A stretch of DNA of 64,000 nucleotides, from assembly GCA_963768425.1 (NCBI GenBank), contig CAVYHV010000030.1, forward strand, positions 81,902 to 145,901, in the 5' to 3' direction. Of this stretch, positions 20,958-37,510 are shown piece by piece. The notes beneath the pieces are model-generated. The model saw nothing but the letters and a program-made list of their open reading frames with translations. It ran no database searches and was not told the DNA's origin. The stretch's first letter is position 1. Each line of letters begins with the position of its first letter. A program made the position numbers and the translations under genes. This stretch comes from Candidatus Bathyarchaeota archaeon (GTDB taxonomy: Archaea > Thermoproteota > Bathyarchaeia > Bathyarchaeales > Bathycorpusculaceae).

Positions 20958-22001
20958 ATGTCTTACAAGAAAAAGAAAACTCGGTTCTTCAAAGACAACC
21001 AAAAACGAACTCGCATAATACCAGGGTGCGGTGACCAAAGAGCATCATTGTATGTTGATTCAAGCCACAGCGCAGCTTCAACTTTACATGAGCAAAGACT
21101 TGGTCAGCGCATAAGAGCAGAGCACATTCCATTGCAGAAAGTTAATGCTACTAAAGATGGCGTTGCAGTTGTTGTTCCTGAGCGTGAAGTTGACTTGAAG
21201 CTGATTACTGCTAAGACAGATGACGTCGTTATTCCACTTAATGACCATGAGACGCAAGCACAATTAGATGAGCGTGCTCAAGTGTTTGTGGAAGCATATC
21301 ACAGAGGCGAAGTTATCCCTCCAGTTCTTCTTCACAGATTACCAAATGGCAAATTAGAAGTAGTTGATGGACGCAGTCGTGCGCGTGCATACCAATTGTT
21401 GGGTGTCAAAGAGTACGCAGCAAATGAGAATGGAATATTAGATGCATTTAACAATTCTCGCTTTGGCACAAGTCACAGCGCAAATTCAATTGCAAGCAAA
21501 GCAAGCAAAATAAATGCAGCAGGGCAGAAAGCGCTAAATGTTGGTGCATTCCACGTCGGACGACAACTTGGCAAATCTCAAACAATAGTAAAAGCAAACA
21601 CTGCAGTACATCATAAAATTGGTGCAATAAAAAGCAAAGTTAACAACAAAATTGATCCGCACACAATTAAAACCAATATAGAAGAGCGAACGAAAGCAGC
21701 AAAAGAGCGCACTCGAATAGCAAATGAAAGAATTGCAAAAGCTGAGAACGCTGAGCAAGACGCAAAACTATTCAATGACTCACGTACAGCTTCTATGAAT
21801 GCAAGAGCAGCAAGTAAGGAGCGACTTGATAATTTAGCTAAAGCACGCAAAGCTAAACTTGACAAAGCAGCTAACAGCGTACACATCTCAGCAAATCCTG
21901 AGTTCACCAAAGCAAAAACGTACGCAGTGAAAGCAAAGAGTTATGCTGATAGTTCTAACTCGAGAAGAGACTCAGCAAGGCAGTCACATAGAAGACGTTG
22001 A
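20958..22001 (+). CDS. ParB/Srx-domain protein with long Lys/Ala/Arg-rich tail
   Basis: IPPVLLHRLPNGKLEVVDGRSRARA fits the ParB GxxRxxA motif. Confidence 0.7.
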   Translation: MSYKKKKTRFFKDNQKRTRIIPGCGDQRASLYVDSSHSAASTLHEQRLGQRIRAEHIPLQKVNATKDGVAVVVPEREVDLKLITAKTDDVVIPLNDHETQAQLDERAQVFVEAYHRGEVIPPVLLHRLPNGKLEVVDGRSRARAYQLLGVKEYAANENGILDAFNNSRFGTSHSANSIASKASKINAAGQKALNVGAFHVGRQLGKSQTIVKANTAVHHKIGAIKSKVNNKIDPHTIKTNIEERTKAAKERTRIANERIAKAENAEQDAKLFNDSRTASMNARAASKERLDNLAKARKAKLDKAANSVHISANPEFTKAKTYAVKAKSYADSSNSRRDSARQSHRRR

Positions 22002-22033
22002 CCTTTTCAATGCTCAATGGGAGTGCACTTTAA

Positions 22034-22396
22034 TTGGGCAAAGAAATAAGCAGAACAATAAACTTTTTCAGATATCCCAATCGTCAGCAGCAATTTGATT
22101 ACGTCCAACCTCAGCCAATTGCTCAAAGAGAAACAATTGTACGAAGAGACAGCAGCAACTTGGACATTCACAATGAAAGAATTAGACTGCGTCAACTTAA
22201 AGAGAAAAAGACACATCACATGATAGAAATCTACGCATACTTACGACATCAAGGATTCTCAGCAATTGCATCTACACACAAATTGATTCAACTTTTCAAA
22301 GATACTTCTCTTGCAATTGAAATCTCTAACAAATTTGAAGCTGCAATTAGCAAGATGTCAACGTCAATTGCAGTTGCACAATTGGAGAAGAAATGA
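22034..22396 (+). CDS. hypothetical protein
   Basis: 120-aa ORF co-oriented with neighbours. Confidence 0.5.
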   Translation: MGKEISRTINFFRYPNRQQQFDYVQPQPIAQRETIVRRDSSNLDIHNERIRLRQLKEKKTHHMIEIYAYLRHQGFSAIASTHKLIQLFKDTSLAIEISNKFEAAISKMSTSIAVAQLEKK

Positions 22397-22587
22397 CTAA
22401 CATTCCATTCATTTCTACGTTAATGATTTCTACTCTATCTACCCCATTGTAGACTATGCAAATATGTTACTATCACTTGTATGGTCAATTGTTAGATTCG
22501 CATGCTGCAAAGAGCGTGTCTTTGCAACCCTGGATACGTATATATTCATTACAGTTATCTTAAATCTTAAGACAGAAGGACAACAAA

Positions 22588-23019
22588 TTGAAAAAAGATG
22601 ATGGTACAATTGCAGAAGTTGGCAACAATTACATTATGCTAAATGATTCTAGAGATAGCATAATAATTTTCTTTTGCATGACTGGAGTAAGTGCAACTGT
22701 AGATGAAGAAGAATTCAAGAATCTTGCAGACATATTTGCATCTGCGAAGAAGCTTTTAGATGACGACAGAATTTCAGTTGCAAAAATAATTGCGTGCAGA
22801 GAAGAACAAACTGAGCAATGCTTTAGCAATTTGCACTTTGATAAAGGAACATGCAGAGAAACACCGTGTAGTCCAGACATGTTTTGCAAACTCTTTATTG
22901 ATGACTGTTCTATGACGTTTGACATAGCATTTGAAGACTTAGACGACATCATCAAGCTGTTTGCAATTGCAATGAAAGCACTCAACAAGAAAGAAGAGTC
23001 AAACATTGCAGTCTCGTGA
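22588..23019 (+). CDS. acidic hypothetical protein
   Basis: Follows the duplicated promoter motif. Confidence 0.6.
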   Translation: MKKDDGTIAEVGNNYIMLNDSRDSIIIFFCMTGVSATVDEEEFKNLADIFASAKKLLDDDRISVAKIIACREEQTEQCFSNLHFDKGTCRETPCSPDMFCKLFIDDCSMTFDIAFEDLDDIIKLFAIAMKALNKKEESNIAVS

Positions 23020-23024
23020 GGTGA

Positions 23025-23288
23025 ATGCAATTGAAAGTAGAAGCATTTTGTAATTACTTGAGAAATAAAATGGCTGCTGACGCTGCAGTGTATGCATTTA
23101 TGAATGGATTGTCTAAAGCAGAAGTTGATGCTGCAATTGCAAGTAAAAGTGATGATGATGTATTAAATGCTTACAGACATTCTAAGTACGATGGACACGA
23201 ATACATTAGCAAAAGTGAGCTTGAAACTTTAATTAAGAAGTCAGCAAGCTATGAGCAAATTGAAGACGCTACTGGCAAAATGGTGTAA
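23025..23288 (+). CDS. hypothetical protein
   Basis: GAGGTGA RBS directly upstream. Confidence 0.65.
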   Translation: MQLKVEAFCNYLRNKMAADAAVYAFMNGLSKAEVDAAIASKSDDDVLNAYRHSKYDGHEYISKSELETLIKKSASYEQIEDATGKMV

Positions 23289-24039
23289 TTGCATGACTAC
23301 GTATATGCTCTTTGCGACTACGGAAACGAATATATGGAAAAACTTACTCTATAGCTAATTGCTCACTTCGTCTAACTTTCAAAAAAACTGCTTAGGAAAT
23401 GTTTGTCAATTTCTCCAATTGCAATTGGAGAAGGTGACTGAGACTACATGTCTTCGCATCTTCTACAAAGTCTTAGAGCCATGACGACTCTTACGCCATA
23501 GTTCGTTATTCCTTTGTAGATAAGTTTAGTTGGCTTTTCAAGTCCGCAATTGTTGCAATGAGTTCCATTGCAATCGTCATACCAACCTGCTAATGCTCCA
23601 GATGGAAGAATGTTTGAACGATTTGACAATTGTTGTTTAGACATTTTGATTGCCTTCTTTTTGCTTTGGGAATGTTTGACGTTTTTGAGAATCTTTCACC
23701 AGAAATTGTTTCGTTTTCTTCTGGGTTACGCCCTACTTCAGGATGTTACTGTAGAAAGAAAAGCCAGTCCTTGTCCTTAGCTTACTGGGGATGGGTGAGC
23801 CAAGATTGTCCAGAGAAGAGGTCTTGGCTTCTGGGTTTGAGGTTTTGAGTTTTTGATTCTTTAGCTTCACCTGTCGGTGTTTGACAAGCATAGATAGATC
23901 ACACGCCTATTGAACAGATGCCATTGAGCGTGTAATATTGACTACTGTAAGACACACATACAGAAGAATTATTGCAATTGTAACATTCACTTACACAAAA
24001 CTTAGAATCTGATAACTCAAAAACCCAATGGAATGTTTG

Positions 24040-24939
24040 TCATTTTCGCTTGCGAAAAAGTTTCTCACCATTAAAGTCTACGACAAACTCAAAACCTGAC
24101 TCAACCAATTTCTGAGCTTCAACAATTGTATGTGCAATTGCAGAAGAATACTCATCACTTTCAAAGTTAATCATTTGAATGTAAATTAGAGTGTTGTTGA
24201 TTGACTTGTGCCCAAGCAGTCTCATGACGTGAAGAATATCTTTCGTCTTATGATACTCAATTGTAGCTCGCCAATGTCTGAGACTGTGATAATGAATTTG
24301 TGCAAGTCTTGGATTACCTAACGCAATTGCTGCTGCACGCTTTTGATGATTGAAGTTGCATATGACTGATTGACCGCTACCCGTACCAAAAACATATTTG
24401 TTATCTTTCTTCAATTGCATCAGCATAGCACACAACTTCTCAGATATTTTGAATTGACGTGCGTTGCTGTGCTTCTCAGGATTATTGAGCAAAACTATTC
24501 TGCTCTCGAAGTCTATGTCAGTCCATTGGAGAGAAAGAGCTTCTCCGATACGCATAGCTGTCTCTTTCAACAATTGCAGAATCGTAGAAGTTTTCTTTCC
24601 ACAATACGCAATTAGCTGGTCTATTTCTGATTCTAATGGAATGAATGGAAGCTTATGTGTAGCTCGATACTTAGGTGGATTCCATTCTATGTTATTCATT
24701 GTTGCGTATTTTCTGTACGCTGCTACAACTGTTACTTTAGTCGCTGAACTCCATGTTGATTGCAATGCAATTGCAGATTTCACTGACTCTCCATCGCAGA
24801 GTTTTGCGCCTGATTTCACTAACATTTCTAAGAACTTAGAGTAGTTAGTTATCGTTCTGCTGCTATACCCATTCCTTTGCAATTGGAGAGAGAACTGCAA
24901 CAGGCTGCTTGTCTGTAGATTTGAGTACGCCTTTTCCAT
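24040..24939 (-). CDS. tyrosine recombinase/integrase 1
   Basis: MRIGE, PEKHS, HSLRH, LLGH, TLIY catalytic residues; C-terminal FRKRK tail. Confidence 0.95.
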   Translation of the reverse strand: MEKAYSNLQTSSLLQFSLQLQRNGYSSRTITNYSKFLEMLVKSGAKLCDGESVKSAIALQSTWSSATKVTVVAAYRKYATMNNIEWNPPKYRATHKLPFIPLESEIDQLIAYCGKKTSTILQLLKETAMRIGEALSLQWTDIDFESRIVLLNNPEKHSNARQFKISEKLCAMLMQLKKDNKYVFGTGSGQSVICNFNHQKRAAAIALGNPRLAQIHYHSLRHWRATIEYHKTKDILHVMRLLGHKSINNTLIYIQMINFESDEYSSAIAHTIVEAQKLVESGFEFVVDFNGEKLFRKRK

Positions 24940-25041
24940 ACAATTTAATTGAGCATGTATTCCTTTTAAGACGTTCTACTTGTGCATGTGAATCAATTGC
25001 AACAAAATATAAGATAAAATTGGATTGTATGTATTTTAAAT

Positions 25042-25073
25042 CTTTAACTATCCCTATTCGAGCATAGTTAAAG
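25042..25073. other. 32-bp dyad recombination-like site 1
   Basis: CTTTAACTAT-CCCTATTCGAGC-ATAGTTAAAG; perfect 10-bp arms, ~100 bp upstream of integrase 1. Confidence 0.85.
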
Positions 25074-25172
25074 AAACTCCTCCTATAATCACCCAAGGAA
25101 AAATCAATCAAAGAACTACAGGTTGCAATCTAGTGGCAAATCATATTAGGAATTTTTTATAAATAGCAGGTT

Positions 25173-25508
25173 ATGACTCTCCTGAGTAGTCCAACAGCAA
25201 CTCCGTTTGACAATATGCAACAACAAGTTCTTATCTCACAATATTTGACATTTGCCCTAGTCTTAGGCATAGCTGTTCTGCTTGCTGTGTCAAATCTCTA
25301 TTTTTACGCACCAAGATATAGGAAATGGGTCGGGATAGCAGGTATTTCTCTTGGAGCAATGGGAAGCGCTATCTGCATTGGAGTTATACTTCTTACCGTT
25401 TCAAACAATGGTGCGGATCTTGGATTAGGTGTCATTACCCTTTTTGTCATTGAAATTCCAGTTATGTGCGTTGGAGTCTTATCTGTAAAGAACAGGAAAA
25501 AGACATAA
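25173..25508 (+). CDS. three-TM membrane protein (cassette-like)
   Basis: Flanked by the exact direct repeat TATTCGAGCATAGTTAAAG at 25055 and 25521. Confidence 0.75.
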   Translation: MTLLSSPTATPFDNMQQQVLISQYLTFALVLGIAVLLAVSNLYFYAPRYRKWVGIAGISLGAMGSAICIGVILLTVSNNGADLGLGVITLFVIEIPVMCVGVLSVKNRKKT

Positions 25509-25520
25509 TCAGACGGAAGT

Positions 25521-25539
25521 TATTCGAGCATAGTTAAAG
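25521..25539 (+). repeat. half copy of the dyad site (part of spacer plus right arm)
   Basis: TATTCGAGCATAGTTAAAG, 12 bp after the stop of 25173..25508; no left arm. Confidence 0.85.
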
Positions 25540-25584
25540 TAAGCCTTCATATGTAAAGCAGAGAAGCAATTGAAAGAAGAATTC

Positions 25585-25641
25585 GGTCAAGAAACTTTGA
25601 CTAAATTCAGTCAAGGAATTTTTACGAATAGCCTTTTATCG
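25585..25641 (+). repeat. AGTCAA triple-box plus TATA module, copy 1
   Basis: GGTCAA-GAAACT-TTGACT-AAATTC-AGTCAA...GCCTTTTATCG. Confidence 0.85.
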
Positions 25642-25663
25642 ATAACCATTCGTACTGATTATT

Positions 25664-26884
25664 ATGGGCTTTAAGAAAACTTCCGCTTTGGTGCTTATTG
25701 GGTTATTTCTGATCTCTATTGTCAGCTTTCAATCTGCAATTGTGAAAGCTCAAGCCAGAACGCTCATTGTTCCAGACCAGTACCCAACTATTCAAGATGC
25801 TATAGGCAATGCAAGTTCAGGAGATACAGTGTACGTCAAAGATGGAACATACAATACAGGGTTTAATATTGATAAATCATTATCGTTAGTTGGAGAAGAC
25901 CCAGAAAAGACTATCATTCGTGGAATCGAACGATACCCATATTGGCAATATCCAACAATTCAGGTATCTGACGAAAATGTCAGTATTTCAGGCTTTACAA
26001 TAACAAACTCCTGGGAAGCCATCGACATCTACAACGTTAATGACGCTTATTCAATTAGTATTACTGGTAACAACATTGTAAAAAATTTGTCTGGAATCGG
26101 AGCAGGGGGCGTGAATTTAGTTATCTTTGGGAATAACATAACTGATAACTCGAAAGGCGGGATAAGTTTTGACGGTCAAAACAGCATCATTTCTAATAAC
26201 TACATTTACCAAAACTCATTTGGAATATACACGTCTGAGATTAAGAATGTGACCATCCAAGACAATACTATTTCAGATAACGGAGGAAACTCGAATTCGG
26301 AGCAATTTGGTGGACTGGATCTTCAGAGTTTTGCTTCCATCTTTGTTCATGGAAATAATATCGAAAATAACGTTGGGGATGGTATCTTGCTTGAGGGCAA
26401 CATCAAAGCTTCAATCCACAATAACAATATAACGAACAACACTGTGGGCATAAAACTTGATAATTATCTTCTCGGAGGTATCTTCCATAGTGTGGGCACA
26501 GGCAATGAGATTTACAACAACAACCTGATCGACAATATCAAGAACGCTTTAGTAGTGCATACAGACGAAAATGATGCCACATGGAATGGATACATAGGGA
26601 ATGGAACAGATGTTGTTTCATGGGATAGCGGTAAGGTTGGCAATTACTGGAGTGATTACAGCGGTCAAGGAACTTATGTTATTGACCAAAACAATACTGA
26701 CGAGCATCCGCTAAGTCAACAAGTTCACATTTCTACAATAACACCTACAATACCTAATTTGCTTTCCATACTAAACGGTGCAATTATCGTGGTTATTGTA
26801 GTTGCATTAACTGCCATTGTCGCATTATTACTTTACAGAAGGCATCGAAAGACCACTAACTCCAGACAATTGACACCTCACTAA
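25664..26884 (+). CDS. NosD/right-handed beta-helix surface protein with C-terminal TM anchor
   Basis: VPDQYPTIQDAI, repeated I.GNNI, GNYWSDY, TM plus RRHRK. Confidence 0.9.
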   Translation: MGFKKTSALVLIGLFLISIVSFQSAIVKAQARTLIVPDQYPTIQDAIGNASSGDTVYVKDGTYNTGFNIDKSLSLVGEDPEKTIIRGIERYPYWQYPTIQVSDENVSISGFTITNSWEAIDIYNVNDAYSISITGNNIVKNLSGIGAGGVNLVIFGNNITDNSKGGISFDGQNSIISNNYIYQNSFGIYTSEIKNVTIQDNTISDNGGNSNSEQFGGLDLQSFASIFVHGNNIENNVGDGILLEGNIKASIHNNNITNNTVGIKLDNYLLGGIFHSVGTGNEIYNNNLIDNIKNALVVHTDENDATWNGYIGNGTDVVSWDSGKVGNYWSDYSGQGTYVIDQNNTDEHPLSQQVHISTITPTIPNLLSILNGAIIVVIVVALTAIVALLLYRRHRKTTNSRQLTPH

Positions 26885-27289
26885 TTGAAATCGTAGTTGA
26901 ATGTTTGATGATTTTCACTATGATTTAGACCTTTGAGATGATTGAGGTAACTTAGACCCATGTCTTGAGACTAGTCATAAAGTATACCCCAACGATTGAC
27001 TATGAAGAAATAACTTGTTAATTATTTTAACATTCCAATAACAAAAGAGACTTAGAGAATAATAGATATTTAGTCACAACTTGGAATGTTGAAAGGTCTT
27101 GAAATACTGTGTTTAACATGACCCATGTTGATTAAAATGCATTCTTTTCCATTGAAAAAAGAATTTTTGAACGCTTCTCTCAAAGACTTTCATATGATAA
27201 ATTATAATTAGCTGTGTAGTGTGAGCGAAGGACTGTGTCATTTAGAATTATTCTTCCCAAACCAAAGAGAGCCTGATTGACTCAACAAC

Positions 27290-28120
27290 TTGTTGCTAGA
27301 CCCTTATCAGATTACCGTCAACAGTGTAGATAGGACTACTACCCTGACTGATATTTCCAGAAATCTAAATCCTAGCAGACACCATACTAATTTAAAAACC
27401 AAAAGGGCAGATATTGAAACTCCAAAGAGGGGGGTTGACCCTCAAAGGAGTTGGACAATAATAGTTAGACAATACAATGAATATAAAACCTATCAATTCT
27501 GCAGCAATGCAGTTTATGACAATTGGTGCATGGGTTTCATTGACTATAAAGAGCTGAAAGAAGAATTTGTAAAGTTTCCTCTTCCGGATGTCCCACAAAG
27601 ATATAACAAAATGGTGGAGCTAGCTACCCTGTTCTTCCTTCCAGTCATCATAAGAGAGTTGCTAGAACCTTTTTATGAGAAGATTGAAGTCTCTTGTAAC
27701 TACTTTCCATCCACAGGTCCGGACATAATTGTTTTTTCAAAGGATAGTCTCTTGTTAAAGATGGAGGTATTGAATTGGTGGATACAGTCATATCTTTCAG
27801 AGGGAAGGGCCTCAGGCATAAAAGACAATCTCAAGGGAGCACGCTACAAGGTCTTGTATGTAACATCCGACAAAAACTTAACAACATGGACTATGAATAG
27901 TAAACTCCTTTCAGGTCTCAAGAAAGCGCTCAAAGGAGTTAATATTTACTACTCACGTTACCAAATACTTCCAATTACTTATTTTGACTATCTTTTCAAG
28001 ATTGATTACAGATTTGCTAAGGATAGAGCAATCTTCAATGAGAAAACCATCAAACACCAAAAGATTCGATTAAAGAGGTTCTTTGAGCAAATAGGGATTA
28101 TTCCTCTTGTAAAGAGATAA
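27290..28120 (+). CDS. hypothetical protein, possible PD-(D/E)xK-fold nuclease
   Basis: GPDIIV...MEVLNW (Lys position replaced); start uncertain. Confidence 0.5.
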   Translation: MLLDPYQITVNSVDRTTTLTDISRNLNPSRHHTNLKTKRADIETPKRGVDPQRSWTIIVRQYNEYKTYQFCSNAVYDNWCMGFIDYKELKEEFVKFPLPDVPQRYNKMVELATLFFLPVIIRELLEPFYEKIEVSCNYFPSTGPDIIVFSKDSLLLKMEVLNWWIQSYLSEGRASGIKDNLKGARYKVLYVTSDKNLTTWTMNSKLLSGLKKALKGVNIYYSRYQILPITYFDYLFKIDYRFAKDRAIFNEKTIKHQKIRLKRFFEQIGIIPLVKR

Positions 28121-28397
28121 TAATAGAATAATGGCTAGACAGAGATTATCCTTGTTCTGCCTATTTCAATATTTGATTAACCCTTTCTAAAAGGAATTGT
28201 TCTCATTTGAAAATAAGAGGTTTCAATTCCGCCCTTTCCAAAAACAAGACACAATCCTCTTGTAAATATGGTATTATGTTTGATTATTTCTTTCTGTTCC
28301 CAATCTGGTTAATGGTTTCTGACTTTGTGATAGTGGGTGGTTTTATGTTGTTTGACCTATCTAAGAAACCTAAATTATTCAACTGTTTGATAGGTTA

Positions 28398-29300
28398 TCA
28401 TTTTCTCTTTCTAAAAATCTTGACTCCATCAAATTCTGTAACGTACTCGAATCCAATTTCAATCAACTTCTGAGCTTCCTCAACTGTTTTGGCAACTGAA
28501 GAGGTGTATTCATCACTCTGTTCGAACGCAACCAGATGTGTGTAGATGAGGGTGTTGTTGATGGATTTGTGTCCTAGGAGGTTCATGACATGAAGAATGT
28601 CTTTGGTTTTGTGGTATTCAGTGGTCGCCTTCCAATGTCTTAATGTGTGGAAGTGGATTTGAAGGAGATGAGGATTCGCTAACGCAACTGCTGCTTTCTT
28701 TCTCTGAAACCTGAAGTTACAAATTGTAGATTGTTTACTTCCTATTCCAAAAATAAACTTCTCATCTTTTTTTATTCTAAGTATCATGGAAGATAGTTTT
28801 TCAGATATCTTAAAACAACGAGCATTACTATGTTTCTCTGGTCTGTTGAGTAGGATTACTCCTCTTTCCAAGTTGATGTCTGTCCACTGTAAGTCTAACG
28901 CTTCTCCGATCCGCATTCCTGTTTCCTTTAGGAGTTGAAGAATTGTAGAAGTTTTCTTTCCACAGTAGGCAATCAGAGAATCAATTTCAGATTCAGTGGG
29001 AATGAAGGGTAACTTTGTTGTTCTCTGGTACTTGGGTCTAACCCATGATATGTTGTTCATTTCCGCATACTTAGCATAGGTGGCAACCACAGTCACCTTT
29101 GTGGATGGACTCCAATCCGATTTAAGAGAGATGACTCCTTTGACAGACTCAGGGTCACTCAAGTCAGCCCCATATCTTACTAACAATTCAAGGAACTTGG
29201 AGTAATTCAATATAGTTCTCTCAGAATAACCATCCTTCTTGAGTTTCCAAGAAAACTGAATTATTCCATCGTTCTCATGATTAGAGTATGTAAGTTCCAT
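28398..29300 (-). CDS. tyrosine recombinase/integrase 2, paralog of integrase 1
   Basis: MRIGE, PEKHS, HTLRH, LLGH, TLIY; colinear with 24040..24939. Confidence 0.95.
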   Translation of the reverse strand: MELTYSNHENDGIIQFSWKLKKDGYSERTILNYSKFLELLVRYGADLSDPESVKGVISLKSDWSPSTKVTVVATYAKYAEMNNISWVRPKYQRTTKLPFIPTESEIDSLIAYCGKKTSTILQLLKETGMRIGEALDLQWTDINLERGVILLNRPEKHSNARCFKISEKLSSMILRIKKDEKFIFGIGSKQSTICNFRFQRKKAAVALANPHLLQIHFHTLRHWKATTEYHKTKDILHVMNLLGHKSINNTLIYTHLVAFEQSDEYTSSVAKTVEEAQKLIEIGFEYVTEFDGVKIFRKRK

Positions 29301-29400
29301 AGTATTTTTAAGTAAGTTATTCCTTTTAAAATATTCTATATCTGCATGTCTTTCAAGTGATAAAAATATTAGTTAAAATTGGATTTTATTAGTTTTAAAT

Positions 29401-29432
29401 CTTTAACTATACCTATTCGAGCATAGTTAAAG
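29401..29432. other. 32-bp dyad recombination-like site 2
   Basis: CTTTAACTAT-ACCTATTCGAGC-ATAGTTAAAG; 31/32 identical to site 1. Confidence 0.85.
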
Positions 29433-29488
29433 AAACCCCTTCCGCAATCAACCAATGGAAAACAAAGAGACAATTGGAAAAAGAGTTC

Positions 29489-29546
29489 AGTTAAGAAAGT
29501 TTGACTTAGCTTAGTCAAGAAACCTGTACAAGAACGCTTTTATCGG
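29489..29546 (+). repeat. AGTCAA triple-box plus TATA module, copy 2
   Basis: AGTTAA-GAAAGT-TTGACT-TAGCTT-AGTCAA...GCTTTTATCG. Confidence 0.85.
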
Positions 29547-29568
29547 CAGACTAATTCCAAACGTTGTT

Positions 29569-30180
29569 ATGGGTAAGAAAAGATTAGTCATAACATCCTT
29601 GTTAGTGGCTCTACTCTTTGTAAGCGCAATTGCAGGAACGGTAGCTTATTATAATGACAAAATGGCGAACCTAAACAGCCAAGTATCTGAGTTAAAAGCA
29701 GTAATAGCGAATTTATCAACTCGCAACATGACGGCTTCATTGGGAATTGCTGAACTGTTAGGCAATGAAAGCACCTATATGGGTGGCTATGTTGCTACAC
29801 CAATTCCATATAATTACCTTTACATAACTGGTTCAATAAGAAACGTTGGAAACGCCACAGCATACAATGTTGGACTACACGTCATAGCTTTTGATGCGAC
29901 AGGCGCATTAGAAATAAACATGACAGTTCCATTGGATGGAATATTTGGAATCGATAACGCAACCAGAACTTTTGTTTTAGAACACTACGGCTATGGTAAT
30001 TATGACCCAGCGAATCATACCTACAGCAACCATTACAGCTCAAGATTGTGGGAGATTGTGGATGGAAACCAGACAGTTGATATTGGTGGTGCGCCTGACT
30101 ATTATGGTTCTCTAAGCATCATCAATGAAGGCATAGTTACCAATTGGACTGTAACACCTGTATGGACAGATGCGCCATGA
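29569..30180 (+). CDS. secreted/anchored hypothetical protein (short coiled coil plus beta-rich domain)
   Basis: Signal peptide; YITGSIRNVGNATAYNV. Confidence 0.8.
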   Translation: MGKKRLVITSLLVALLFVSAIAGTVAYYNDKMANLNSQVSELKAVIANLSTRNMTASLGIAELLGNESTYMGGYVATPIPYNYLYITGSIRNVGNATAYNVGLHVIAFDATGALEINMTVPLDGIFGIDNATRTFVLEHYGYGNYDPANHTYSNHYSSRLWEIVDGNQTVDIGGAPDYYGSLSIINEGIVTNWTVTPVWTDAP

Positions 30181-30217
30181 GTCAAGGAGCTTGCTTCTAT
30201 AGCTATGAATCGAAACA

Positions 30218-30275
30218 AGTCAAGAAACCTTGACTAAGCCCGGTCAAGAAATCAGTACAAGAGAGCTTAAATATA
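30218..30275 (+). repeat. AGTCAA triple-box plus TATA module, copy 3
   Basis: AGTCAA-GAAACC-TTGACT-AAGCCC-GGTCAA...GCTTAAATA. Confidence 0.85.
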
Positions 30276-30312
30276 AATGAAAAGTGCTGCAACAGCAAGA
30301 ACGATCAAAGCC

Positions 30313-31002
30313 ATGACTAGGAAGAGGAATTTACTATTTGGTTCAATAATTGTTGCTGTGGTAGCGGGTTCTTTTATTATTGCATTGATCCTGCTAAATA
30401 GCCAATCTTCGCCGGTTGAGAAGACGGTACCGGAAAAACTGAGTTTGGGTCTTTTTTCAAACCAAACGAGCGTGTTGCAAGGGGGCGAAATTCAGGATGA
30501 AGTTAATGTAACCTCAAATCGCCCTGCCGAAAACATAACATTGAATGCTCAAACGGGAACAAGCGGCATAATTTCCATTTTCGAGCCCTCCGTCAGCCAC
30601 AACAATTTTACAAGTTTTCTTAACATAAAAATCACTGATTCTGCCCCTACAGGAAACTACTCCATAAGTATAACAGCCTCAGGCGATGGCCAAACAGCAA
30701 CCAGTTCTTTTGATCTTTCCGTTCTTAGTGCCAATGTCACAGTTTCCGGGAGAATTGAGATGTCCACAGGATATGAGAATGGATACCTAACCTCACTCGT
30801 GTTCTATAGCGAACAAACAAACACCAATCAAACGATACATATTCCACATGCTTCGATGCAAGGTCTATTAAACGGTCTTTTAAGCGATTATTCCGTTACT
30901 CTTCAAAATAACCAGACGTACATCGTGTGGGTGAATTATTTTCAGGGAGACGCAAGCCTTCATGAATTTTATCCCGTGCAGTATTATTTCGGCCCGTATT
31001 GA
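30313..31002 (+). CDS. membrane-anchored Ig-like surface protein
   Basis: TM N-terminus, APTGNYSISITA; ATG 30313 preferred because 30277 abuts the TATA box. Confidence 0.75.
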   Translation: MTRKRNLLFGSIIVAVVAGSFIIALILLNSQSSPVEKTVPEKLSLGLFSNQTSVLQGGEIQDEVNVTSNRPAENITLNAQTGTSGIISIFEPSVSHNNFTSFLNIKITDSAPTGNYSISITASGDGQTATSSFDLSVLSANVTVSGRIEMSTGYENGYLTSLVFYSEQTNTNQTIHIPHASMQGLLNGLLSDYSVTLQNNQTYIVWVNYFQGDASLHEFYPVQYYFGPY

Positions 31003-31128
31003 TCTTTGCACCCGCAGGAAAAAACACAATATCTGGATTAAACTTCACTGGATAACCCATGCAAGACTTTCACCAAAGACATAGAGTAGATTGGTCGCAC
31101 AGCAACTATAACCCACCCAATAACGTCT

Positions 31129-31185
31129 AGTCAAGAAACTTTGACTTGCCACAGTCAATAATCCTTAACGAACAGGCTTTTATCG
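31129..31185 (+). repeat. AGTCAA triple-box plus TATA module, copy 4
   Basis: AGTCAA-GAAACT-TTGACT-TGCCAC-AGTCAA...GCTTTTATCG. Confidence 0.85.
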
Positions 31186-31208
31186 CCTGCACTTGCTTAA
31201 CACTAAAC

Positions 31209-32090
31209 ATGAGTAAAATCGGCAAAACCTTCGCTTTGATTCTCATTCTCATTATGACTATCTCAAGTATTGAACTATTAGTAGCTAAACATGCAAGTGC
31301 TCAATCAATCGGAAATCTGACTGCTCCAACTTTCACAGTCACACTAACAAACACCTCTTACTCTACACCACCTAGCCATTACGTTGACCCTCAAACAGGC
31401 GCAAACATCACAGTGCCAGGCTCTTTTGTCAATCAAGAAAACCTTACGTTTACCATTCAAAATCAACCAGACGTTACCTACTACATAATCCGATGGACAA
31501 CACCGTACATGAAAAGCTGGAGTAACATCGAGGGATACATTGGTGGAGACCCTATGAATGCTACTGTTAAAGGAACTTCAGGTTCAACAACAATCTGGGT
31601 TCTAACCGGCAATAGCAATACGTTCCCAATATACGAAAATGGCAGTCTCGTTGACACGGTCGCCGGTTTCTCCTTTCCGTTTGGTTTTCAAGAACTCAAT
31701 TTTGAAAACGGAGCCAAAATAGAATTTCAAGTCCAAGCCTCAAATGGTTCGCCTACTTACGTGTCAACCATCCTAGACGAGCACTTTTCTATTATAGGTG
31801 AAATAAGCGATTGGAGCAGCACGCAAACAATAACCATACCATCAAGTTCTGCTGCAACAAGTCCATCACCTATTACTATAACAACTCCTGCCGTTCCAGA
31901 GTTGTCTTGGTTGATGATTATGCTTTTGCTTCTTTCCGTGTTCTCTGTTGCTGTGATAGTTAGGCGTCTAAAAAACCTCGGACTGGACCAGCAAAAATTT
32001 CCTGGTGAAAGTGGTAATGGAATGTTTGACGATTTTCTGGCAGTCTATAATCTTTTGCCAGTAGTATTGAAACCTATTTCTAAGACTTAA
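31209..32090 (+). CDS. secreted surface protein with VPEL-TM-basic (PEF-CTERM-like) anchor
   Basis: MSKIGKTFALILIL signal; AVPELSWLMIMLLLL...RR; ATG ~24 nt after the TATA. Confidence 0.8.
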   Translation: MSKIGKTFALILILIMTISSIELLVAKHASAQSIGNLTAPTFTVTLTNTSYSTPPSHYVDPQTGANITVPGSFVNQENLTFTIQNQPDVTYYIIRWTTPYMKSWSNIEGYIGGDPMNATVKGTSGSTTIWVLTGNSNTFPIYENGSLVDTVAGFSFPFGFQELNFENGAKIEFQVQASNGSPTYVSTILDEHFSIIGEISDWSSTQTITIPSSSAATSPSPITITTPAVPELSWLMIMLLLLSVFSVAVIVRRLKNLGLDQQKFPGESGNGMFDDFLAVYNLLPVVLKPISKT

Positions 32091-32127
32091 TAAAACAATT
32101 ATGCAGGTAGAAATGTTTGACGTTTTC

Positions 32128-35031
32128 TCAATAATTTCTAATTAAAATTGATGTGAGACAAGCGGGCATTTTTGGTTTTCTCTCTCTGACAAATATAATC
32201 GATAACAGTATTACTGTTGCAAGAAGTGGCAGAATTATCAAAGTTGGAAACTCTGGAACGATTGATGTCTGTGACCCAAACGTTATGACTACGGTGTGGC
32301 TACTGTGATGATAAGTAAAACTTATTAGCCAAACATTTCCCTCCGAAATGGAATTATAATTAATTGTTCCGCCGTCTAAGGTGACGTTGAGTTTTGAAAT
32401 ATCTGGGATGAGGGATTGCGGAACGCAAACTTCAGTAAACCCGGTTGTTCCCGAAGGTCCAGAAACGCCAAAGCTTAATTCGTTTGTTGTTGAGTCAAAC
32501 GTTAGGCTTGTAAGCGTTGAGTTTGAAGTAACGGAGAATACGTTTTGATTTTGGCTGTTGAAAGGTTCTATTGCAAAGTTGTATACTGCACTTGCACTTG
32601 AATAGTCGCTGTCACCTGACCACGTAGCTTCGATGCCATAAAAACCTGAGACAGAGGGATTCCACACGCAAGAAAAGTTTCCGTCATTGCCAGTTTTTAA
32701 GTAAGCTAAGTCTTGCCAAGTTGCTCCTCCCGTGACGCTGTCAGAAAGCTGAATTCCAGCATCAGGCAAGCCTGCTCCGTCACCTGTTAATGAACCTTGA
32801 ATTTGAACGTTAAATCCAGAGGTTGTCGTGGAACTTATGCAGACGAATGATAAGTTCGGAGATGGCAGATTTGATGCTGGTGTTGGCGTTGGAGTCGGAG
32901 TTGGAACTACGGTTGGTACAACTGTTGGGGTTGGCGTGGGAGAAGGCACATTGTTTGCCCAATACGTATCACTAACATCGACTAATCCAATGCATCCTGG
33001 ATTGCTGCTTGCCGCATCAAATAATGTATATACGTTATCTCCAACTACTATGATTCCGGGAGACCCTACTCCGTTAGTGTCCCAAATGTATTGTCCGCCG
33101 CTTAAGTATGGCTCTGATGGATATGCATCCCAATGGATAAGGTCAGAACTGTAATACCAATAAATCACTGGTAGTGGACCTGCAAAAAGGGTAGCTTGCA
33201 TGAAATACAAGTTAGATGTAGGAACTGTAAAGACGTCTGAAGTTTCTATTGAATATGATGCCGTTAAAATCGGTGCCGAACCATAAATTGTCCATCCATA
33301 AGGAAATGACGAAGCAGATGTTGTAGCTAACAGAACTTGGCCGTTTCCATCTACGAAATACATGTAGTATGTGCTTCCGACAAGAATTACAGATGGGTTA
33401 AAAATGCTGCTGCTTCCAGCCCAATTCGGCGGAGAAAGAATTGGATTTTCTGAGTATTTAGTCCATGCCGAAGTTGAGTTCAAACTACTTACTGGACAAG
33501 TGGCTAAACCAATGCTACTGTATCCTCCACCAACTTCAGAACCATAAAACATGTACACGGTACTTCCATTCACGATTAAACATGGAGCTGAAACTCCGTT
33601 AGGATTTTCCCAAGATTGTGTTTGTGTGAGAACTTGTCCAATTACAGTCCATGTTTGTAAATTGGTGCTTTGCGCTAAACCTATAGTCCAATTTCCAGAA
33701 GATTCTTCTCCCGTAGGTGTGGCGCTGAAAGACATGTAATAAGATCCGTTAGCGTAAATGACAGAGGGGTCTTTCACTCCACTGAGATCAAAACTGTCTG
33801 TTCCCGTAAACACAGGACTTGTTGAAACAAAAGTTAGAGATGATGGAGGTGTTGGGGTCACTGGTGAGGGAGTGGGTGTTGGAGAGGGACCAGGCGAAGG
33901 ACTAGGCACGCTAGGAATGTAGACAGGAGCTAGCGGATTACTTGAATTTAAGAATGGAACATAATTAACCGTTCCCAAATTCAAATTGTCTTTGAAGTCA
34001 TAAATTTTTTGGCTAATTGCCTGTGAATCATTTGTTCCCCACCAATTGTAAGTAGCATCAATATTTGAGTTAACACTTCCAGCCAGTAAGAAATTATAAT
34101 TTGAGTTGTTATAGATGTTGTTACCAGAAATCAAATAGCTGACCGACCCACTATACGAGCCTATGAAAACTCCATCAGTATTATTGCTGATTGTATTGTT
34201 TTGAGTGATTATCGTAAATGGATTATAGTTGCCGTACAAATCCAGTTCAATTCCGCGAGTATTATCAAAAACCAAATTCTCCTGTATCAAAGATTGAGTG
34301 GTATACTCCGAATTAGCAGTAGCATAAATCCCCATGTAAGAACCAAACACCAAGTTGCCGTAAACGGTTGCATTTCCTAGGAGATAAATTCCAGTGTAGC
34401 GAGCAGCGAAAACTGTGTTATTGCAAATAGTTCCTCCACTGGCCGTAATTTGACCCTCTACGGTGTTGTTGGAGATTATTGGGGCCGCTATTCCTTCGAC
34501 ATTAATTGCATCATTGTTACTTACTTGGTTAGTGCAATAAATTGTATTATTGTCTAATTTTGGTGAAACCGAATCTATCAGTATAGTCGGATACAGCTCC
34601 CATGTGGAAGTGATAAATGCGTTCTCAATTATGCTTCCAGATTTTGTTGCATCATTCCAACTTAGACTACTGCCCTCAAACTCAATTGCTCCATCTCCAC
34701 TACCAGCCCCATTGGGTATGTTAAACACTATGTTATCACTCGACGTGCCTGTAGCATTTAACGTACCGTTTACTCTCAGGTAATATCCATTAAAATTGAC
34801 TGTGACTCCCGGCTGAATCGTAAGCATAACGCTATTATTGACAAGTACATTTCCAACAAGCAAATATGGGCTACTTGCTTGCGTCCACATAGTGTCTGAG
34901 CTTATTATGCCACTTACGTTCGTACCGCTTTGAGCCTTGCTAAAATGGACATAAGTAACTCCAACCATCGTGGAAACTAATAATGCCACGATTAATGCCA
35001 GTGCTAATGCGCTTCTTTTCATAAGCACCAA
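32128..35031 (-). CDS. large surface protein: beta-helix, five-bladed-propeller glycoside-hydrolase-like domain, P/T linkers, PEF-CTERM-like anchor
   Basis: NN-rich repeats, NWWG, KDPSVI..YYM and FNPSVI..YYM blades, VPEFPT-TM-RERK. Confidence 0.8.
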   Translation of the reverse strand: MVLMKRSALALALIVALLVSTMVGVTYVHFSKAQSGTNVSGIISSDTMWTQASSPYLLVGNVLVNNSVMLTIQPGVTVNFNGYYLRVNGTLNATGTSSDNIVFNIPNGAGSGDGAIEFEGSSLSWNDATKSGSIIENAFITSTWELYPTILIDSVSPKLDNNTIYCTNQVSNNDAINVEGIAAPIISNNTVEGQITASGGTICNNTVFAARYTGIYLLGNATVYGNLVFGSYMGIYATANSEYTTQSLIQENLVFDNTRGIELDLYGNYNPFTIITQNNTISNNTDGVFIGSYSGSVSYLISGNNIYNNSNYNFLLAGSVNSNIDATYNWWGTNDSQAISQKIYDFKDNLNLGTVNYVPFLNSSNPLAPVYIPSVPSPSPGPSPTPTPSPVTPTPPSSLTFVSTSPVFTGTDSFDLSGVKDPSVIYANGSYYMSFSATPTGEESSGNWTIGLAQSTNLQTWTVIGQVLTQTQSWENPNGVSAPCLIVNGSTVYMFYGSEVGGGYSSIGLATCPVSSLNSTSAWTKYSENPILSPPNWAGSSSIFNPSVILVGSTYYMYFVDGNGQVLLATTSASSFPYGWTIYGSAPILTASYSIETSDVFTVPTSNLYFMQATLFAGPLPVIYWYYSSDLIHWDAYPSEPYLSGGQYIWDTNGVGSPGIIVVGDNVYTLFDAASSNPGCIGLVDVSDTYWANNVPSPTPTPTVVPTVVPTPTPTPTPASNLPSPNLSFVCISSTTTSGFNVQIQGSLTGDGAGLPDAGIQLSDSVTGGATWQDLAYLKTGNDGNFSCVWNPSVSGFYGIEATWSGDSDYSSASAVYNFAIEPFNSQNQNVFSVTSNSTLTSLTFDSTTNELSFGVSGPSGTTGFTEVCVPQSLIPDISKLNVTLDGGTINYNSISEGNVWLISFTYHHSSHTVVITFGSQTSIVPEFPTLIILPLLATVILLSIIFVRERKPKMPACLTSILIRNY

Positions 35032-35091
35032 TCGCTAATACGTTTAACTTTCTCTAATGTTTTGTGCTGTAGGCTATTTCTAGAGCATTGG

Positions 35092-35142
35092 GATAAAAGG
35101 CTATTCGTAAAAGTTTCTTGACTGGGTTTAGTCAAAGTTTCT
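35092..35142 (-). repeat. AGTCAA box plus TATA module, copy 5 (inverted, two boxes)
   Basis: Reverse strand: AGAAACT-TTGACT-AAACCC-AGTCAA-GAAACTTTTACGAATAGCCTTTTATC. Confidence 0.85.
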
Positions 35143-35309
35143 CTTATGTAAGGAAACGATCGAAGGCCAAACCAAACAGACTTCCGACTACCTTTCTACT
35201 TCACCCATCCACACTTAAATTTCTTTCACCAATGTATTTCAGACAACATTCTCTTATCAGCGAACAAAGTCGCACTACGGCTTCAGCTAACAGCCAAGGA
35301 AAACTCCAT

Positions 35310-36433
35310 TCTTGACCAAGCAGATAAACTGCAGCAAACTTTAGAAGACATCCCAAGCTGCCCGTCCTACTTTACCGTGAAATCCCGCTCATAAGTCCAA
35401 ACAGCCCAAACCACATTCACCAACTTACGAGCAACAATCTTAATCGCATCCTTGCTATTGCCTTTCCTAACACAAGCATCTCTAAACACAGCCGCCAAAT
35501 GACCCTCTGGACAAAACCTAACATGAGACCAAGCAGACTCAATAAAAATACACTTAAGCCAACAATCACCCCTCGCTTCTTTTCCAGCAAACGAATGCTC
35601 ACCAGACTGACTCACCCTCGGCACCAACCCAGCATAATGCGCCAACTTCTCAGCACTGCTAAATCGTTTAATATCGCAAATCTCCGCATACAACGTCAAA
35701 GCCGACAAAAAACCAATTCCTGGTATGGTCATAAGCAGCTCAACAGGCTTAATCTTTCCATATTTCCTTCTCAGCATGGCTTCAATTTTCTTAGTCTGCT
35801 CAGCCATAACATCCAACAGTTCAAGGTTCTGCTCAACCTCAAAAACGCCAAGATCAGAAGCTTCCCTTCTTCCCTTCAAAGTCCCCAAATTAACATCAAG
35901 ACTAATATCTCGCTTCCTAAACTCGGAGCGGGTCCTATTCTTAACACTTGTAGACAACTTTGTTCTATACGACCGATGTCTTAGCAGGTTCCTAAGCCAC
36001 CGCAACTCGCTGGGAGGAACATAACAGGTTGGCAACCAATTCATCCTCACTAAATCAGCCAACAACTTACTATCCACACGATCAGTTTTAACATCTTCTG
36101 CACGATATTTCACTTTCACCGGATTCGCCAGCAAAGGCTCAAACTCTAATTCATCCAAAAAATCAATCCAAGGCCAACAAAAACCAACCGATTCCAACGC
36201 CACCTTACTGCCTTTAGGAACATTCTCTAAAGACGTTCGCAATTCAGCTCTACTTGTCTTAATTCTCTCTGTTTTTACTATCTCACCATTCACTTTCATT
36301 ATTGTTACCTGAGTATTCTTCAGGTGAACATCCAAACCAACCACCACATCGCTCAACTTCTCCTACCTCCGATATCACTACTGGCTTATCGGAGGTCTAC
36401 TTAGAAAATCCTTTACATCCCGTCTTGACCAAG
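35310..36433 (-). mobile_element. IS110-family insertion sequence (boundaries tentative)
   Basis: Transposase flanked by 11-bp direct repeat TCTTGACCAAG at 35310-35320 and 36423-36433. Confidence 0.65.
35367..36356 (-). CDS. IS110-family DEDD transposase/recombinase
   Basis: GLDVH, ALES, KTDRVD, TIPGIG, YAGLVP..SQSG, ARKL. Confidence 0.95.
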   Translation of the reverse strand: MSDVVVGLDVHLKNTQVTIMKVNGEIVKTERIKTSRAELRTSLENVPKGSKVALESVGFCWPWIDFLDELEFEPLLANPVKVKYRAEDVKTDRVDSKLLADLVRMNWLPTCYVPPSELRWLRNLLRHRSYRTKLSTSVKNRTRSEFRKRDISLDVNLGTLKGRREASDLGVFEVEQNLELLDVMAEQTKKIEAMLRRKYGKIKPVELLMTIPGIGFLSALTLYAEICDIKRFSSAEKLAHYAGLVPRVSQSGEHSFAGKEARGDCWLKCIFIESAWSHVRFCPEGHLAAVFRDACVRKGNSKDAIKIVARKLVNVVWAVWTYERDFTVK

Positions 36434-36738
36434 ATTAGTTTATTTCTACTATCAGATTCAAGACTTTCGAATAAATTATGTTTCAACAAATGGATAGATT
36501 TCTTTTTGCGAAATGCAAAAAACGTTAGTTGAAATTGGAATGCGTGAGTTTGAAATCCTTAACTATCACTGTCTACGTCTATCTCAAGGTGGATAACGTT
36601 TCTCGATTGACTGTTTGGTGTGGTTTTATCCTCTGCTTTTGATGTGGTTTGTCTAAGATGAAAGACTGTTCTGCTTGCGGAACACTTTGTTCTTCTGGGA
36701 GAGCTAAAAGGCGCTCCTTCGTATTTTCTTAATGTGGG

Positions 36739-37437
36739 GTGTTTCGCCTGAAAAGAAAAATTGTGGCATTAACGCTTCTTACATTAATTGCTTTAGCATT
36801 TAGCGGAGTTAATTTATCTAATCAGCAAAAAGGGCTTTTTTCCACAACCTTAGGTTTGCAGCCTACCGCTTTTCCTTCACCTTCCCCTGAACTTACACCT
36901 GTTGTAACTCTTGCACCGCCAGAACCAACTGTTTCTTTTACTCTTTGGCATACAAATTCACCTGTTATCCAGCCACCGGCAAAACAACTTGCACATATAC
37001 CTCCAATCTGCGAAATAGCATCTCCCCAAAATCAAACGGTATTGCAAACAAACAACTTTACGCTAAACGTAAACGTAGCTTCGTACTTTTGGATAATTAA
37101 CAGTGTTTATTACGAAGCAGATTGGATTGAGGGAATTCACCAAATATTCGGCATCCAGCCAAATGGTATTGACGCACTTAATGCTTCAATAACTGTAAAC
37201 TTTAGTGAAATCCCTGATGGAAACCACACATTAACGGTCTACGCTAACACTCATGACGGTTCCCATAGTTTTGCCACTGTAACCTTCTTAACTGAGAGTT
37301 ATCCACCAAGCTTAACTAAGTCAGAGCCTTTTCCAACCCTAACTGTTGCCGCTTCTTCAGCAGCATCAGTAATGGTTGTGATTGCTGGTTTGTTAGTTTA
37401 TCGCGAACGACACAAAAGTTCAAAAAAGTCAAGTTGA
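36739..37437 (+). CDS. secreted Ig-like protein with C-terminal TM anchor (only gene of unit D)
   Basis: Signal, P-rich linker, IASPQNQT, PDGNHTLTVYA, EPFPT-TM-basic. Confidence 0.8.
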   Translation: MFRLKRKIVALTLLTLIALAFSGVNLSNQQKGLFSTTLGLQPTAFPSPSPELTPVVTLAPPEPTVSFTLWHTNSPVIQPPAKQLAHIPPICEIASPQNQTVLQTNNFTLNVNVASYFWIINSVYYEADWIEGIHQIFGIQPNGIDALNASITVNFSEIPDGNHTLTVYANTHDGSHSFATVTFLTESYPPSLTKSEPFPTLTVAASSAASVMVVIAGLLVYRERHKSSKKSS

Positions 37438-37510
37438 CAGCTTCAGCGCCAAAGGCATCCTAAGCGCGATCGGCACTTTCTAAGCAACACTGGGGCAACC
37501 AAGGCATTGG

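Follow-up and report, generated by a model that had tools for sequence, protein, structure and literature searches.

The window analyzed in this study is a 64,000-nucleotide stretch of contig C30 from G000, a metagenome-assembled genome (MAG) of Candidatus Bathyarchaeota (2.96 Mb, 33 contigs, contamination 4.75%). A three-gene archaeal adenosine monophosphate (AMP) pathway cluster, encoding a protein of the ribose-1,5-bisphosphate isomerase family (IF-2B), form III RuBisCO, and AMP phosphorylase (deoA), occupies positions 11920-14075 and 37562-39106. The cluster is split at its divergent promoter by what reads, from the sequence, as a 23.4-kb composite genomic island (14117-37527) within a promoter spacer that normally measures 79-92 bp. 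G+C content of the island is 0.36-0.42, compared to 0.45-0.50 in the flanks. The island consists of units arranged head to tail and parted by four perfect copies and one degenerate copy of a 14-bp core, AAATCTTTAACTAT. At two of the five junctions, on the 5' side of cargo genes, the core contributes to a 32-bp dyad, CTTTAACTAT-N12-ATAGTTAAAG, and the sequences bordering the core are referred to as the P arm (left) and the P' arm (right). Two tyrosine recombinase genes, int1 and int2, were identified, together with genes for secreted or anchored proteins that are preceded by a ~55-bp promoter module. The features of the locus, including open reading frames (ORFs), are as follows.

12852-14075, minus strand: form III RuBisCO large subunit (Pfam RuBisCO_large, E 1.8e-88); left chromosomal flank, adjoining deoA in relatives
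14117-14130, plus strand: core copy 1, the RuBisCO-side boundary (attL-most); its left flank corresponds to the empty sites of relatives
14131-23700, no strand assigned: unit 1, a cryptic low-G+C element with ~13 ORFs, for which Pfam and PHROGs matches are mostly absent
14207-14473, minus strand: winged helix-turn-helix protein of unit 1
15805-16149, minus strand: zinc-finger ORF of unit 1
24040-24939, minus strand: int1, intact short tyrosine recombinase of 299 aa (PF00589, E 8.9e-21)
24990-25073, plus strand: junction 2, with a P arm of ~45 bp (AAAATTGGATT..TTTTAAATC), core at 25038-25051 and P' arm; contains the dyad at 25042-25073
25173-25539, plus strand: 111-aa membrane ORF, then a second dyad spacer and right arm (25521-25539; repeat family D8)
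25586-26884, plus strand: promoter module (25586-25641) and gene for a 406-aa secreted beta-helix (NosD-like) protein
28398-29300, minus strand: int2, intact short tyrosine recombinase of 300 aa (PF00589, E 6.2e-22)
29350-29432, plus strand: junction 3, with P arm, core at 29397-29410 and P' arm; dyad at 29401-29432
29490-32090, plus strand: three module-driven genes for signal-peptide or anchored proteins (modules at 29490, 30219 and 31130; starts at 29569, 30313 and 31209)
32128-35142, minus strand: 967-aa secreted glycoside-hydrolase-like protein (Pfam GH32N, GH43, Big_3_5) and the remainder of its module (35092-35142; inverted repeat I1)
35143-36422, minus strand: IS110-family insertion sequence (transposase at 35367-36356), interrupting the 967-aa gene's module at GTCAAGA
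36508-36566, plus strand: junction 4, P-arm-like sequence and degenerate core AAATCCTTAACTAT at 36553-36566 (repeat families D6 and D7)
36567-37513, plus strand: unit A, with a single gene for a 232-aa anchored protein (36739-37437); present also in genomes G108 and G047
37514-37527, plus strand: core copy 5, the deoA-side boundary, followed by native promoter sequence
37562-39106, plus strand: AMP phosphorylase, DeoA-type (Pfam Glycos_transf_3, 3N, PYNP_C); right chromosomal flank

Four perfect copies of the core were found in the whole genome, at 14117, 25038, 29397, and 37514; all are on the plus strand and all lie in the window. The copy at junction 4 has one mismatch. For comparison, only ~0.23 copies of the 13-nt suffix of the core, AATCTTTAACTAT, are expected in the genome. 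The left arm of the dyad sits within the core. The two dyads have perfect arms and spacers that differ by a single base, and none of 100 shuffled sequences matched the pattern. An earlier note on this DNA, made from the sequence alone, described the dyads; it overlooked the left-arm 14-mer at 14117-14130 and 37514-37527 and its degenerate form at 36553-36566. The left arm was also considered as a genome-wide promoter motif, an idea dropped on finding that its four copies are all at the locus. A tRNA gene was rejected as the integration target; the sole tRNA of the window, at 49951-50029, was its only Rfam match at gathering thresholds.

The RuBisCO and deoA genes are divergently arranged in relatives of G000. 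In the first 11 relatives inspected they were 84-90 bp apart with an invariant core midway in 10; in the remaining one, G016, 820 bp are inserted between two cores and the spacer measures 908 bp. The comparison was extended to 120 genomes of the genus, 95 of which could be assessed. Spacers were calculated by hand from the coordinates of the RuBisCO and deoA matches (for G002, from its split deoA match), and the spacer sequence was displayed for 10 of the genomes with empty spacers. Genomes that could not be assessed had the two genes on separate contigs (G089, G065, G034), lacked one gene (G033, G053, G037, G061, and others), or, in the case of G064, carried a displaced RuBisCO pseudogene. 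The spacer was empty (79-92 bp) in 82 genomes and occupied (0.9-23.5 kb) in 13: G000 (23486 bp), G049 (11760 bp), G106 (4778 bp), G047 (3067 bp), G108 (2397 bp), G119 (2240 bp), G101 (2087 bp, no cores), G113 (1565 bp), G126 (1283 bp), G117 (1161 bp), G087 (1116 bp), G124 (~1027 bp), and G016 (908 bp). Twelve species other than that of G000 thus have insertions of 0.9-11.8 kb at the same site, flanked by core-like repeats in 11 of them. The earlier note had proposed comparing gene order between strains; cargo content was found to differ, not to be fixed, across the 13 occupied sites. The seven genomes closest in DeoA identity (89-93%) all have occupied sites, and the content differs in each. 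The core lies ~34 bp before deoA and ~45 bp before RuBisCO in a spacer that is otherwise variable. Since it is the native, genus-wide conserved center of this spacer, the core most likely serves as the chromosomal attachment site (attB), and the dyad is best read as the point where this core meets P', the left-end arm found in one family of units.

In G000, four units are bounded by perfect or near-perfect cores. The number of units is probably about eight when decayed junctions are included, because decayed cores, a fused junction, and a repeated dyad half are also present inside the window. The right end of unit 1 is probably a decayed core near 23688, after a motif beginning AATGTTTGACG, and another decayed core was found near 32045-32060, after the three module-driven genes; both follow a motif beginning AATGTTTGA. 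The sequence at 25521-25539 is probably a fused or decayed junction as well, and a fused junction was detected at 26917. The unit bearing int2 spans 25052-29397 (4.4 kb); no recognizable replication or virion gene was found in it, and Pfam searches gave no match for its 111-aa and 276-aa ORFs; the beta-helix gene is its third cargo gene. Three copies of a 42-nt direct repeat (..GGATACGTATATAAT..; family D5), at 20043, 22519, and 23309, precede ORFs of unit 1 and look like an element-specific promoter. Paralogs of the beta-helix gene, including its module, were found on contigs C13 and C28 of G000.

Direct copies of the core also bound units in G108, G047, G117, G106, G119, G049, and G016, and, with one to two mismatches or a 1-nt deletion, in G126, G087, G113, and G124. 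The complete P' left arm, NCCTATTCGAGCATAGTTAAAGAAAC, was identified in G000 (at two junctions), G108, G047, G117, G106, and G087; G119 and G126 have a truncated version. At least four unrelated first genes follow this P' left end. At the opposite end, int1 and int2 each lie at the right end of a unit, ~100 bp from the core and behind the conserved P arm. The P arm was found at right junctions in G000 (three times), G117, G049, and G124, and it occurs without an integrase at 36508-36552 in G000 and in the other three genomes. Other right ends consist of the motif AATGTTTGAYGATTTTC followed by 10-16 nt (G108, G016, G087) or of two further sequences. The 1072-bp unit of G117 has one secreted-protein gene, both arms, and no integrase; formally, its sequence is that of an element which retained attL and attR and lost the integrase. 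Single-gene units of about 1 kb without an integrase were also found in G087 (1031 bp), G126 (1196 bp), G016 (820 bp), and as unit A (~950 bp), and a 274-bp segment between two cores in G108 contains no gene at all. The motif AATGTTTGAYGATTTTC was observed at 23671, 26900, 32021, and 32112 in the window and also at G119:C5; it is nearly restricted to the island, with three of its four genome matches (two mismatches or fewer) located there. It was considered as a possible second recombination site or terminator; some copies are part of a coding sequence (..NGMFDDF..), whereas others are noncoding.

Both integrases are members of the tyrosine recombinase family. They share 68% identity and the FRKRK terminus, and the catalytic R, HxxR, H, and Y residues of both align with the XerA structures 4a8e and 5hxy. 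The start codons lie 103 bp (int1) and 101 bp (int2) from the respective dyads. This layout is present in duplicate ~4360 bp apart (repeat families D1, D3, D4, and D11), and junctions 2 and 3 are 85% identical (D4). These results bear out the earlier note, which had reported two leftward integrases with the common C-terminal tail, each ~100 bp from a dyad in a duplicated arrangement. Its statement that the enzymes are not of the IntI type was also confirmed. With the IntI model TIGR02249, which has a cut-off of 265 bits, the scores were 56.9 and 64.3 and the match fell into two stretches. Model NF011946 gave 39 and 52 bits for int1 and int2 (cut-off 435), and the archaeal XerA model NF040815 gave 96.7 and 99.3 bits (cut-off 220). 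Judged by these scores, int1 and int2 are neither IntI nor XerA.

Homologs of the integrases are common in the group. Of 81 genus genomes, 67 gave matches (E<=1e-20), a single genome having as many as 12 copies, and 2615 proteins of a large protein collection matched at E<=1e-30. By these matches, the enzymes belong to an abundant family of Bathyarchaeia. The nearest relatives located on genomes are only ~52% identical; their length is ~430 aa, and an N-terminal CxxC..CxxC zinc ribbon is present in them. A search of the genome collection with int1 returned 33 loci, all at 59% identity or less except for one 50-residue fragment at 72%. In the large protein collection, nine representatives of clusters, 262-300 aa long and 63-74% identical, were found on contigs of 1.1-9.2 kb. 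The sequences thus appear to define a new integrase subclade of ~300 aa without the zinc ribbon of the ~430-aa Bathyarchaeia relatives. A split integrase of the SSV type was rejected; both genes are whole, and the zinc-ribbon N-terminal domain is not encoded on the contig (tblastn). A PF00589 search of G000 gave six tyrosine-recombinase matches, none of them on C13 or C19. Contig C28 was considered as a second instance of the locus because a leftward integrase lies beside module-driven genes there, yet that integrase is a different one, of 453 aa, and has no dyad. Viral contigs yielded only two distant matches to the integrase (30-32% identity).

The ~55-bp module is another repeated sequence of the island. 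In the window, the five copies announced by the earlier note were found, four direct (25586, 29490, 30219, and 31130) and one inverted (35092-35142), the latter 92% complementary to the first. The same note had taken the shared module as a mark of cassettes. That assumption was not sustained: an nhmmer profile search of the genome gave 34 matches (E<=0.01) on 11 of 33 contigs, one of which is a palindromic echo, and only five are in the island; clusters are present on C13 (6) and C19 (5). As the module is distributed genome-wide and gives each gene its own promoter, it does not distinguish cassettes. The module is composed of two tandem AGTCAAGAAAnnTTGAC-type repeats, which are palindromic, followed by a TTTTATC box. 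The distance from the end of the box to the ATG is 23-24 nt for three of the five genes at the locus. Based on these positions, the module is inferred to comprise an operator and a TATA-like box, and it is most simply read as a genome-wide promoter/operator, not as a recombination site. A downstream ATG ORF within 110 nt was found for 24 matches, and 21 of these 24 ORFs have a signal-peptide-like hydrophobic N-terminus. Between paralogs, similarity is confined to the module and the gene's 5' end. For the third gene, the start at 30313 given by the earlier note is favored over the ATG of the ORF list at 30277, which is just 3 nt from the TATA-like box; for the fifth, the first start in the ORF list, 35031, is a TTG, with an ATG 9 nt further in.

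Two side observations concern the module. It points to a candidate regulon of ~33 promoters, mostly before genes for signal-peptide proteins (e.g., C13:38.7-46.4 kb and C19:24.5-31.8 kb). Furthermore, the IS110 element (Pfam match; NCBIfam transpos_IS110, 194.5 bits against a cut-off of 140) interrupts the module of the 967-aa gene at ..GGTCAAGA|CGGGATGTAAAGG.., and a second copy at G000:C6 ~173348 shows the same junction after AGTCAAGA of another module. The element appears to target the module repeat, possibly guided by a bridge RNA.

Based on these comparisons, we suggest with moderate confidence that the locus arose by tandem site-specific accretion of small integrative elements, accompanied by integrase-less remnants that are still flanked by att sites. 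A circular element carrying P-core-P', with the full dyad, would be recombined by its own integrase with the chromosomal core or with a resident dyad, and repeated rounds of integration would lead to a tandem array. Later deletions would strip integrases and inner cores, leaving remnants comparable to cis-mobilizable elements (CIMEs). The two outer cores would be kept, presumably because they are promoter elements of RuBisCO and deoA, and the ~55-bp module would take no part in recombination. The geneless remnant of G108 and the decayed cores of G000 speak for the decay step. An intact recombinase gene next to an att site, direct core repeats, empty attB sites, and integrase-less units with attL and attR, which are hallmarks of accretion and of CIMEs, were found.

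A number of observations weigh against tandem accretion. An integrase is present at only one of the 13 occupied sites; no trace was found at the other 12 by tblastn (E<=10) or by Pfam searches of eight G049 ORFs. Right ends of units are of at least four unrelated types, a variety that would not be expected if a defined P arm were required. The 14-mer is the identity block common to all junctions and the center of the dyad falls to its right; the two do not coincide and so do not place the point of strand exchange. The 12-nt spacer of the dyad is conserved among elements and is unlike attB. Full heads composed of dyad, leader, and module occur at seven loci away from RuBisCO (four in G119, two in G126, and one in G117), and no int1-like gene was present within 3 kb at the six of them that were retrieved. 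The secondary locus at G119:C6 is the only one with an empty-site comparison: relative to G000:C13:63330-63562 it has a ~2-kb insertion, the ends of which did not align and which contains no second core. The secondary locus at AspRS has no synteny in G000. Unit A is 88% identical to its copies in both G108 and G047, and the genomic backbone is 84-90% identical; because the two divergences are similar, inheritance explains the sharing of unit A as well as mobility does. Finally, no circular form, excision junction, or same-strain empty site was seen in public sequencing runs. This check covered 10 runs, each containing a fraction of 0.14 or less of the sampled words; four runs gave contigs, at a depth of only 2-5, and the parts of the island left uncovered by these carry no information.

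Other joints were noticed in the same contigs. In run X1, one contig joins 29410 to 37574, placing the int2-side arm and core beside deoA; with only 44 nt on one side, it hints weakly at an alternative array. The empty site of another species accounts for a loose end at 37511 in X1, and a joint of 26916 with 37514 in X3 was traced to the repeated AATGTTTGA.. motif of a G016-like organism.

The earlier note interpreted the locus as a cassette system, in which an integrase and an attI-like platform capture genes for surface proteins. In its revised form, this explanation involves promoter-bearing units of one to three genes with the 32-bp dyad as their sole site, moved in trans by a short Xer-like integrase. 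They would be inserted at the RuBisCO|deoA core and, in some cases, at secondary sites, which would diversify the secreted proteome and lead to turnover of surface proteins and exo-enzymes among closely related species. We consider such integron-like capture possible, though unlikely. Recombination sites do delimit rightward secreted-protein units, as the note had claimed, and several of these are ~1-kb, single-gene, integrase-less units (G117 with both arms, G087, G126, G016, and unit A). The identical P' left end before unrelated first genes, the heads at seven other loci in three genomes, and the differing contents of the seven nearest relatives are all consistent with capture, and heterogeneous right ends would be expected if only the core and P' count. 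Unit 2 of G047 and unit 1 of G119 are 94% identical over 1227 nt, compared to 87% for the flanking RuBisCO and deoA genes, which hints at a more recent exchange between the two; the X1 contig agrees weakly. However, no circles or reordered arrays were seen in the low-depth contigs, 12 of 13 arrays are without an integrase, and no int1 homolog was detected at E<=1e-20 in G047, the genome of which is 82% complete. The geneless remnant and decayed cores indicate decay, insertions on either side account for the position of unit A in its arrays, and the secondary-locus head examined is not accompanied by a second site. Each gene has its own promoter and the IntI model failed. The absence of attC hairpins, stated in the earlier note, was confirmed: the dyad forms a perfect, symmetric 11-bp stem on both strands (-7.2 and -8.2 kcal/mol), and imperfect, strand-asymmetric hairpins of the attC type were not found at the junctions. 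The dyad hairpin itself was not formed at the core junctions 14109-14164 and 37506-37561, the first of which folds no better than shuffled sequences (z +0.51). In place of an integrase-attI platform, the locus offers a chromosomal attB in the RuBisCO|deoA promoter spacer, and the layout as a whole fits tandem accretion as described for other elements.

A less probable explanation is that the dyad and core are primarily an operator for a transcription factor, or a bidirectional promoter element, common to the spacer and to some secreted-protein genes. In this case, duplication and homologous recombination between repeated promoter heads and modules would have enlarged the arrays, and the integrases would be no more than incidental passengers. 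The invariance and position of the core in a variable spacer are in line with such a role, as are the dyad heads found before secreted-protein genes elsewhere without integrases; the 55-bp modules would offer plentiful substrates for homologous exchange, and the paralogs are alike only in the module and the 5' end of the gene. Occurrence of the dyad was examined in 89 genus genomes plus G000 and in 311 other genomes of the order. The full dyad with the conserved spacer was found in seven of the 89 and in G000, and the 311 gave just three unrelated one-mismatch matches. One of the seven in-genus matches (G099:C139:4924-4955) is an empty site, not an element junction: its unoccupied native spacer bears a near-perfect dyad, with nine of 10 positions of the right arm. 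The chromosomal site itself may be a dyad operator that is mimicked by elements. No match to the dyad pattern was found in viral contigs; in metagenome contigs three stretches matched, all of which correspond to the G106 and G108 arrays, and a free element was not found. The operator explanation does not account for integrase genes placed twice at equal distance from the core behind a conserved arm, for direct repeats flanking units in 12 genomes with clean empty sites in 82, or for the low G+C of the island. Moreover, 14 bp of identity is short for homologous recombination, and the P arm recurs beside deoA, where no promoter role is apparent.

A chimeric join of mobile-element contigs into the MAG is very improbable: G000 is contaminated to the level given above, the far end of the contig is atypical, and the contigs of G065 and G034 break at the core, but one contig carries both chromosomal flanks with the expected half-sites, analogous arrays are present in 11 other independently assembled genomes (some in a single or few contigs), and identical short contigs from four runs of four studies tile parts of the island. 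The contig starts in question (G065:C62 and G034:C31) are only a few bases away from the core on the upstream side of deoA, which would be expected if repeated or variable units are located there. The atypical region is window 60000-64000, the end of C30, with a G+C content of 0.55-0.63, an IS91 transposase (60289-61479), pieces of an IS3 transposase, and a 196-aa C-terminal tyrosine-recombinase ORF at 61476-62066. It looks bacterial, and either an insertion of foreign DNA or a mis-join at the end of the contig may explain it. Elsewhere in the window, PMT and PMT_4TMC domains were found in consecutive ORFs (8137-9414 and 9450-9980), which may represent a frameshift or a split gene.

The locus is of use for further work on archaeal integration. 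It provides a precisely delimited attB with 82 empty and 13 occupied natural alleles, a pair of intact integrases, and defined arms, making it a ready substrate on which an integrase of uncultured archaea could be tested. Secreted-enzyme and surface-protein genes appear to be exchanged at a hotspot inside the promoter of the AMP-salvage/RuBisCO genes, and this cargo bears the promoter of the host's own regulon. If it proved true that the mini-units move in trans, the locus would represent a second, independent invention of cassette capture. As a by-product, the module provides a candidate regulon and operator for secreted proteins.

Non-viral mobile elements of Bathyarchaeia appear to be little described. 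Among the papers listed in a full-text search, integrated elements in Bathyarchaeia were covered only by virus, provirus, and genome-survey papers, which does not exclude that this hotspot has been described; the accessible text of one of these sources mentions a provirus integrase only (PMC11697101). The novelty suggested in the earlier note does not extend to the type of system, as tandem accretion of integrative elements has already been described (PMC5704250, PMC8371274, PMC6563490). Both CIMEs and accretion have been defined in one of them, in which streptococcal elements decay to att-flanked, integrase-less CIMEs before accretion follows (PMC5704250). ICESt1 and ICESt3 of Streptococcus thermophilus resemble the present locus in repeated integration at one att site, in direct att repeats between units, and in decayed units with attL and attR that have lost the integrase and lie beside functional ones. 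The locus differs from ICESt1/ICESt3 in its archaeal host, in having no conjugation genes, in a target that is the core of a divergent promoter instead of a gene 3' end or tRNA gene, in units as small as ~0.8-1 kb with one gene, and in a cargo of secreted-protein genes with a host regulon promoter.

Tandem re-use of an att site, intergenic targets, and integrase loss after integration are on record for archaeal elements (PMC8371274, PMC6563490). The locus shares the intergenic target, the tandem array, and the later loss of integrases with these elements, and, as in pNOB8-type elements, the integrase gene stays whole after integration and adjoins the att site (PMC6563490, PMC8371274). Unlike the described pNOB8-type elements, it has an integrase of a new ~300-aa subclade, a new attB, and a 4.4-kb int2-bearing unit in which Pfam recognizes no replication or virion gene. 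Integrative mobile elements exploiting Xer (IMEX) are integrase-less elements that are integrated in tandem at dif by the Xer recombinases of the host. Integrase-less units with dyad sites are likewise stacked in tandem here at one chromosomal dyad-like site; unlike in IMEX, the site has no dif assignment, the integrases score below the XerA cut-off, and two integrases are borne by the elements themselves.

Published archaeal integrons rest on an IntI with its specific domain and on attC folding (PMC9668308). As in the integrons outlined there, a tyrosine recombinase is transcribed away from an array of short, site-separated gene units, and the content of the array varies among relatives. In contrast to integrons, however, no IntI-specific domain and no asymmetric hairpins of the attC type were found, and the units have their own promoters instead of being promoterless cassettes served by Pc. 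The integrase lies within the array, 12 of the 13 arrays lack one, and the platform is a chromosomal promoter site. Overall, the locus looks more like a known type of tandem accretion island than an integron.

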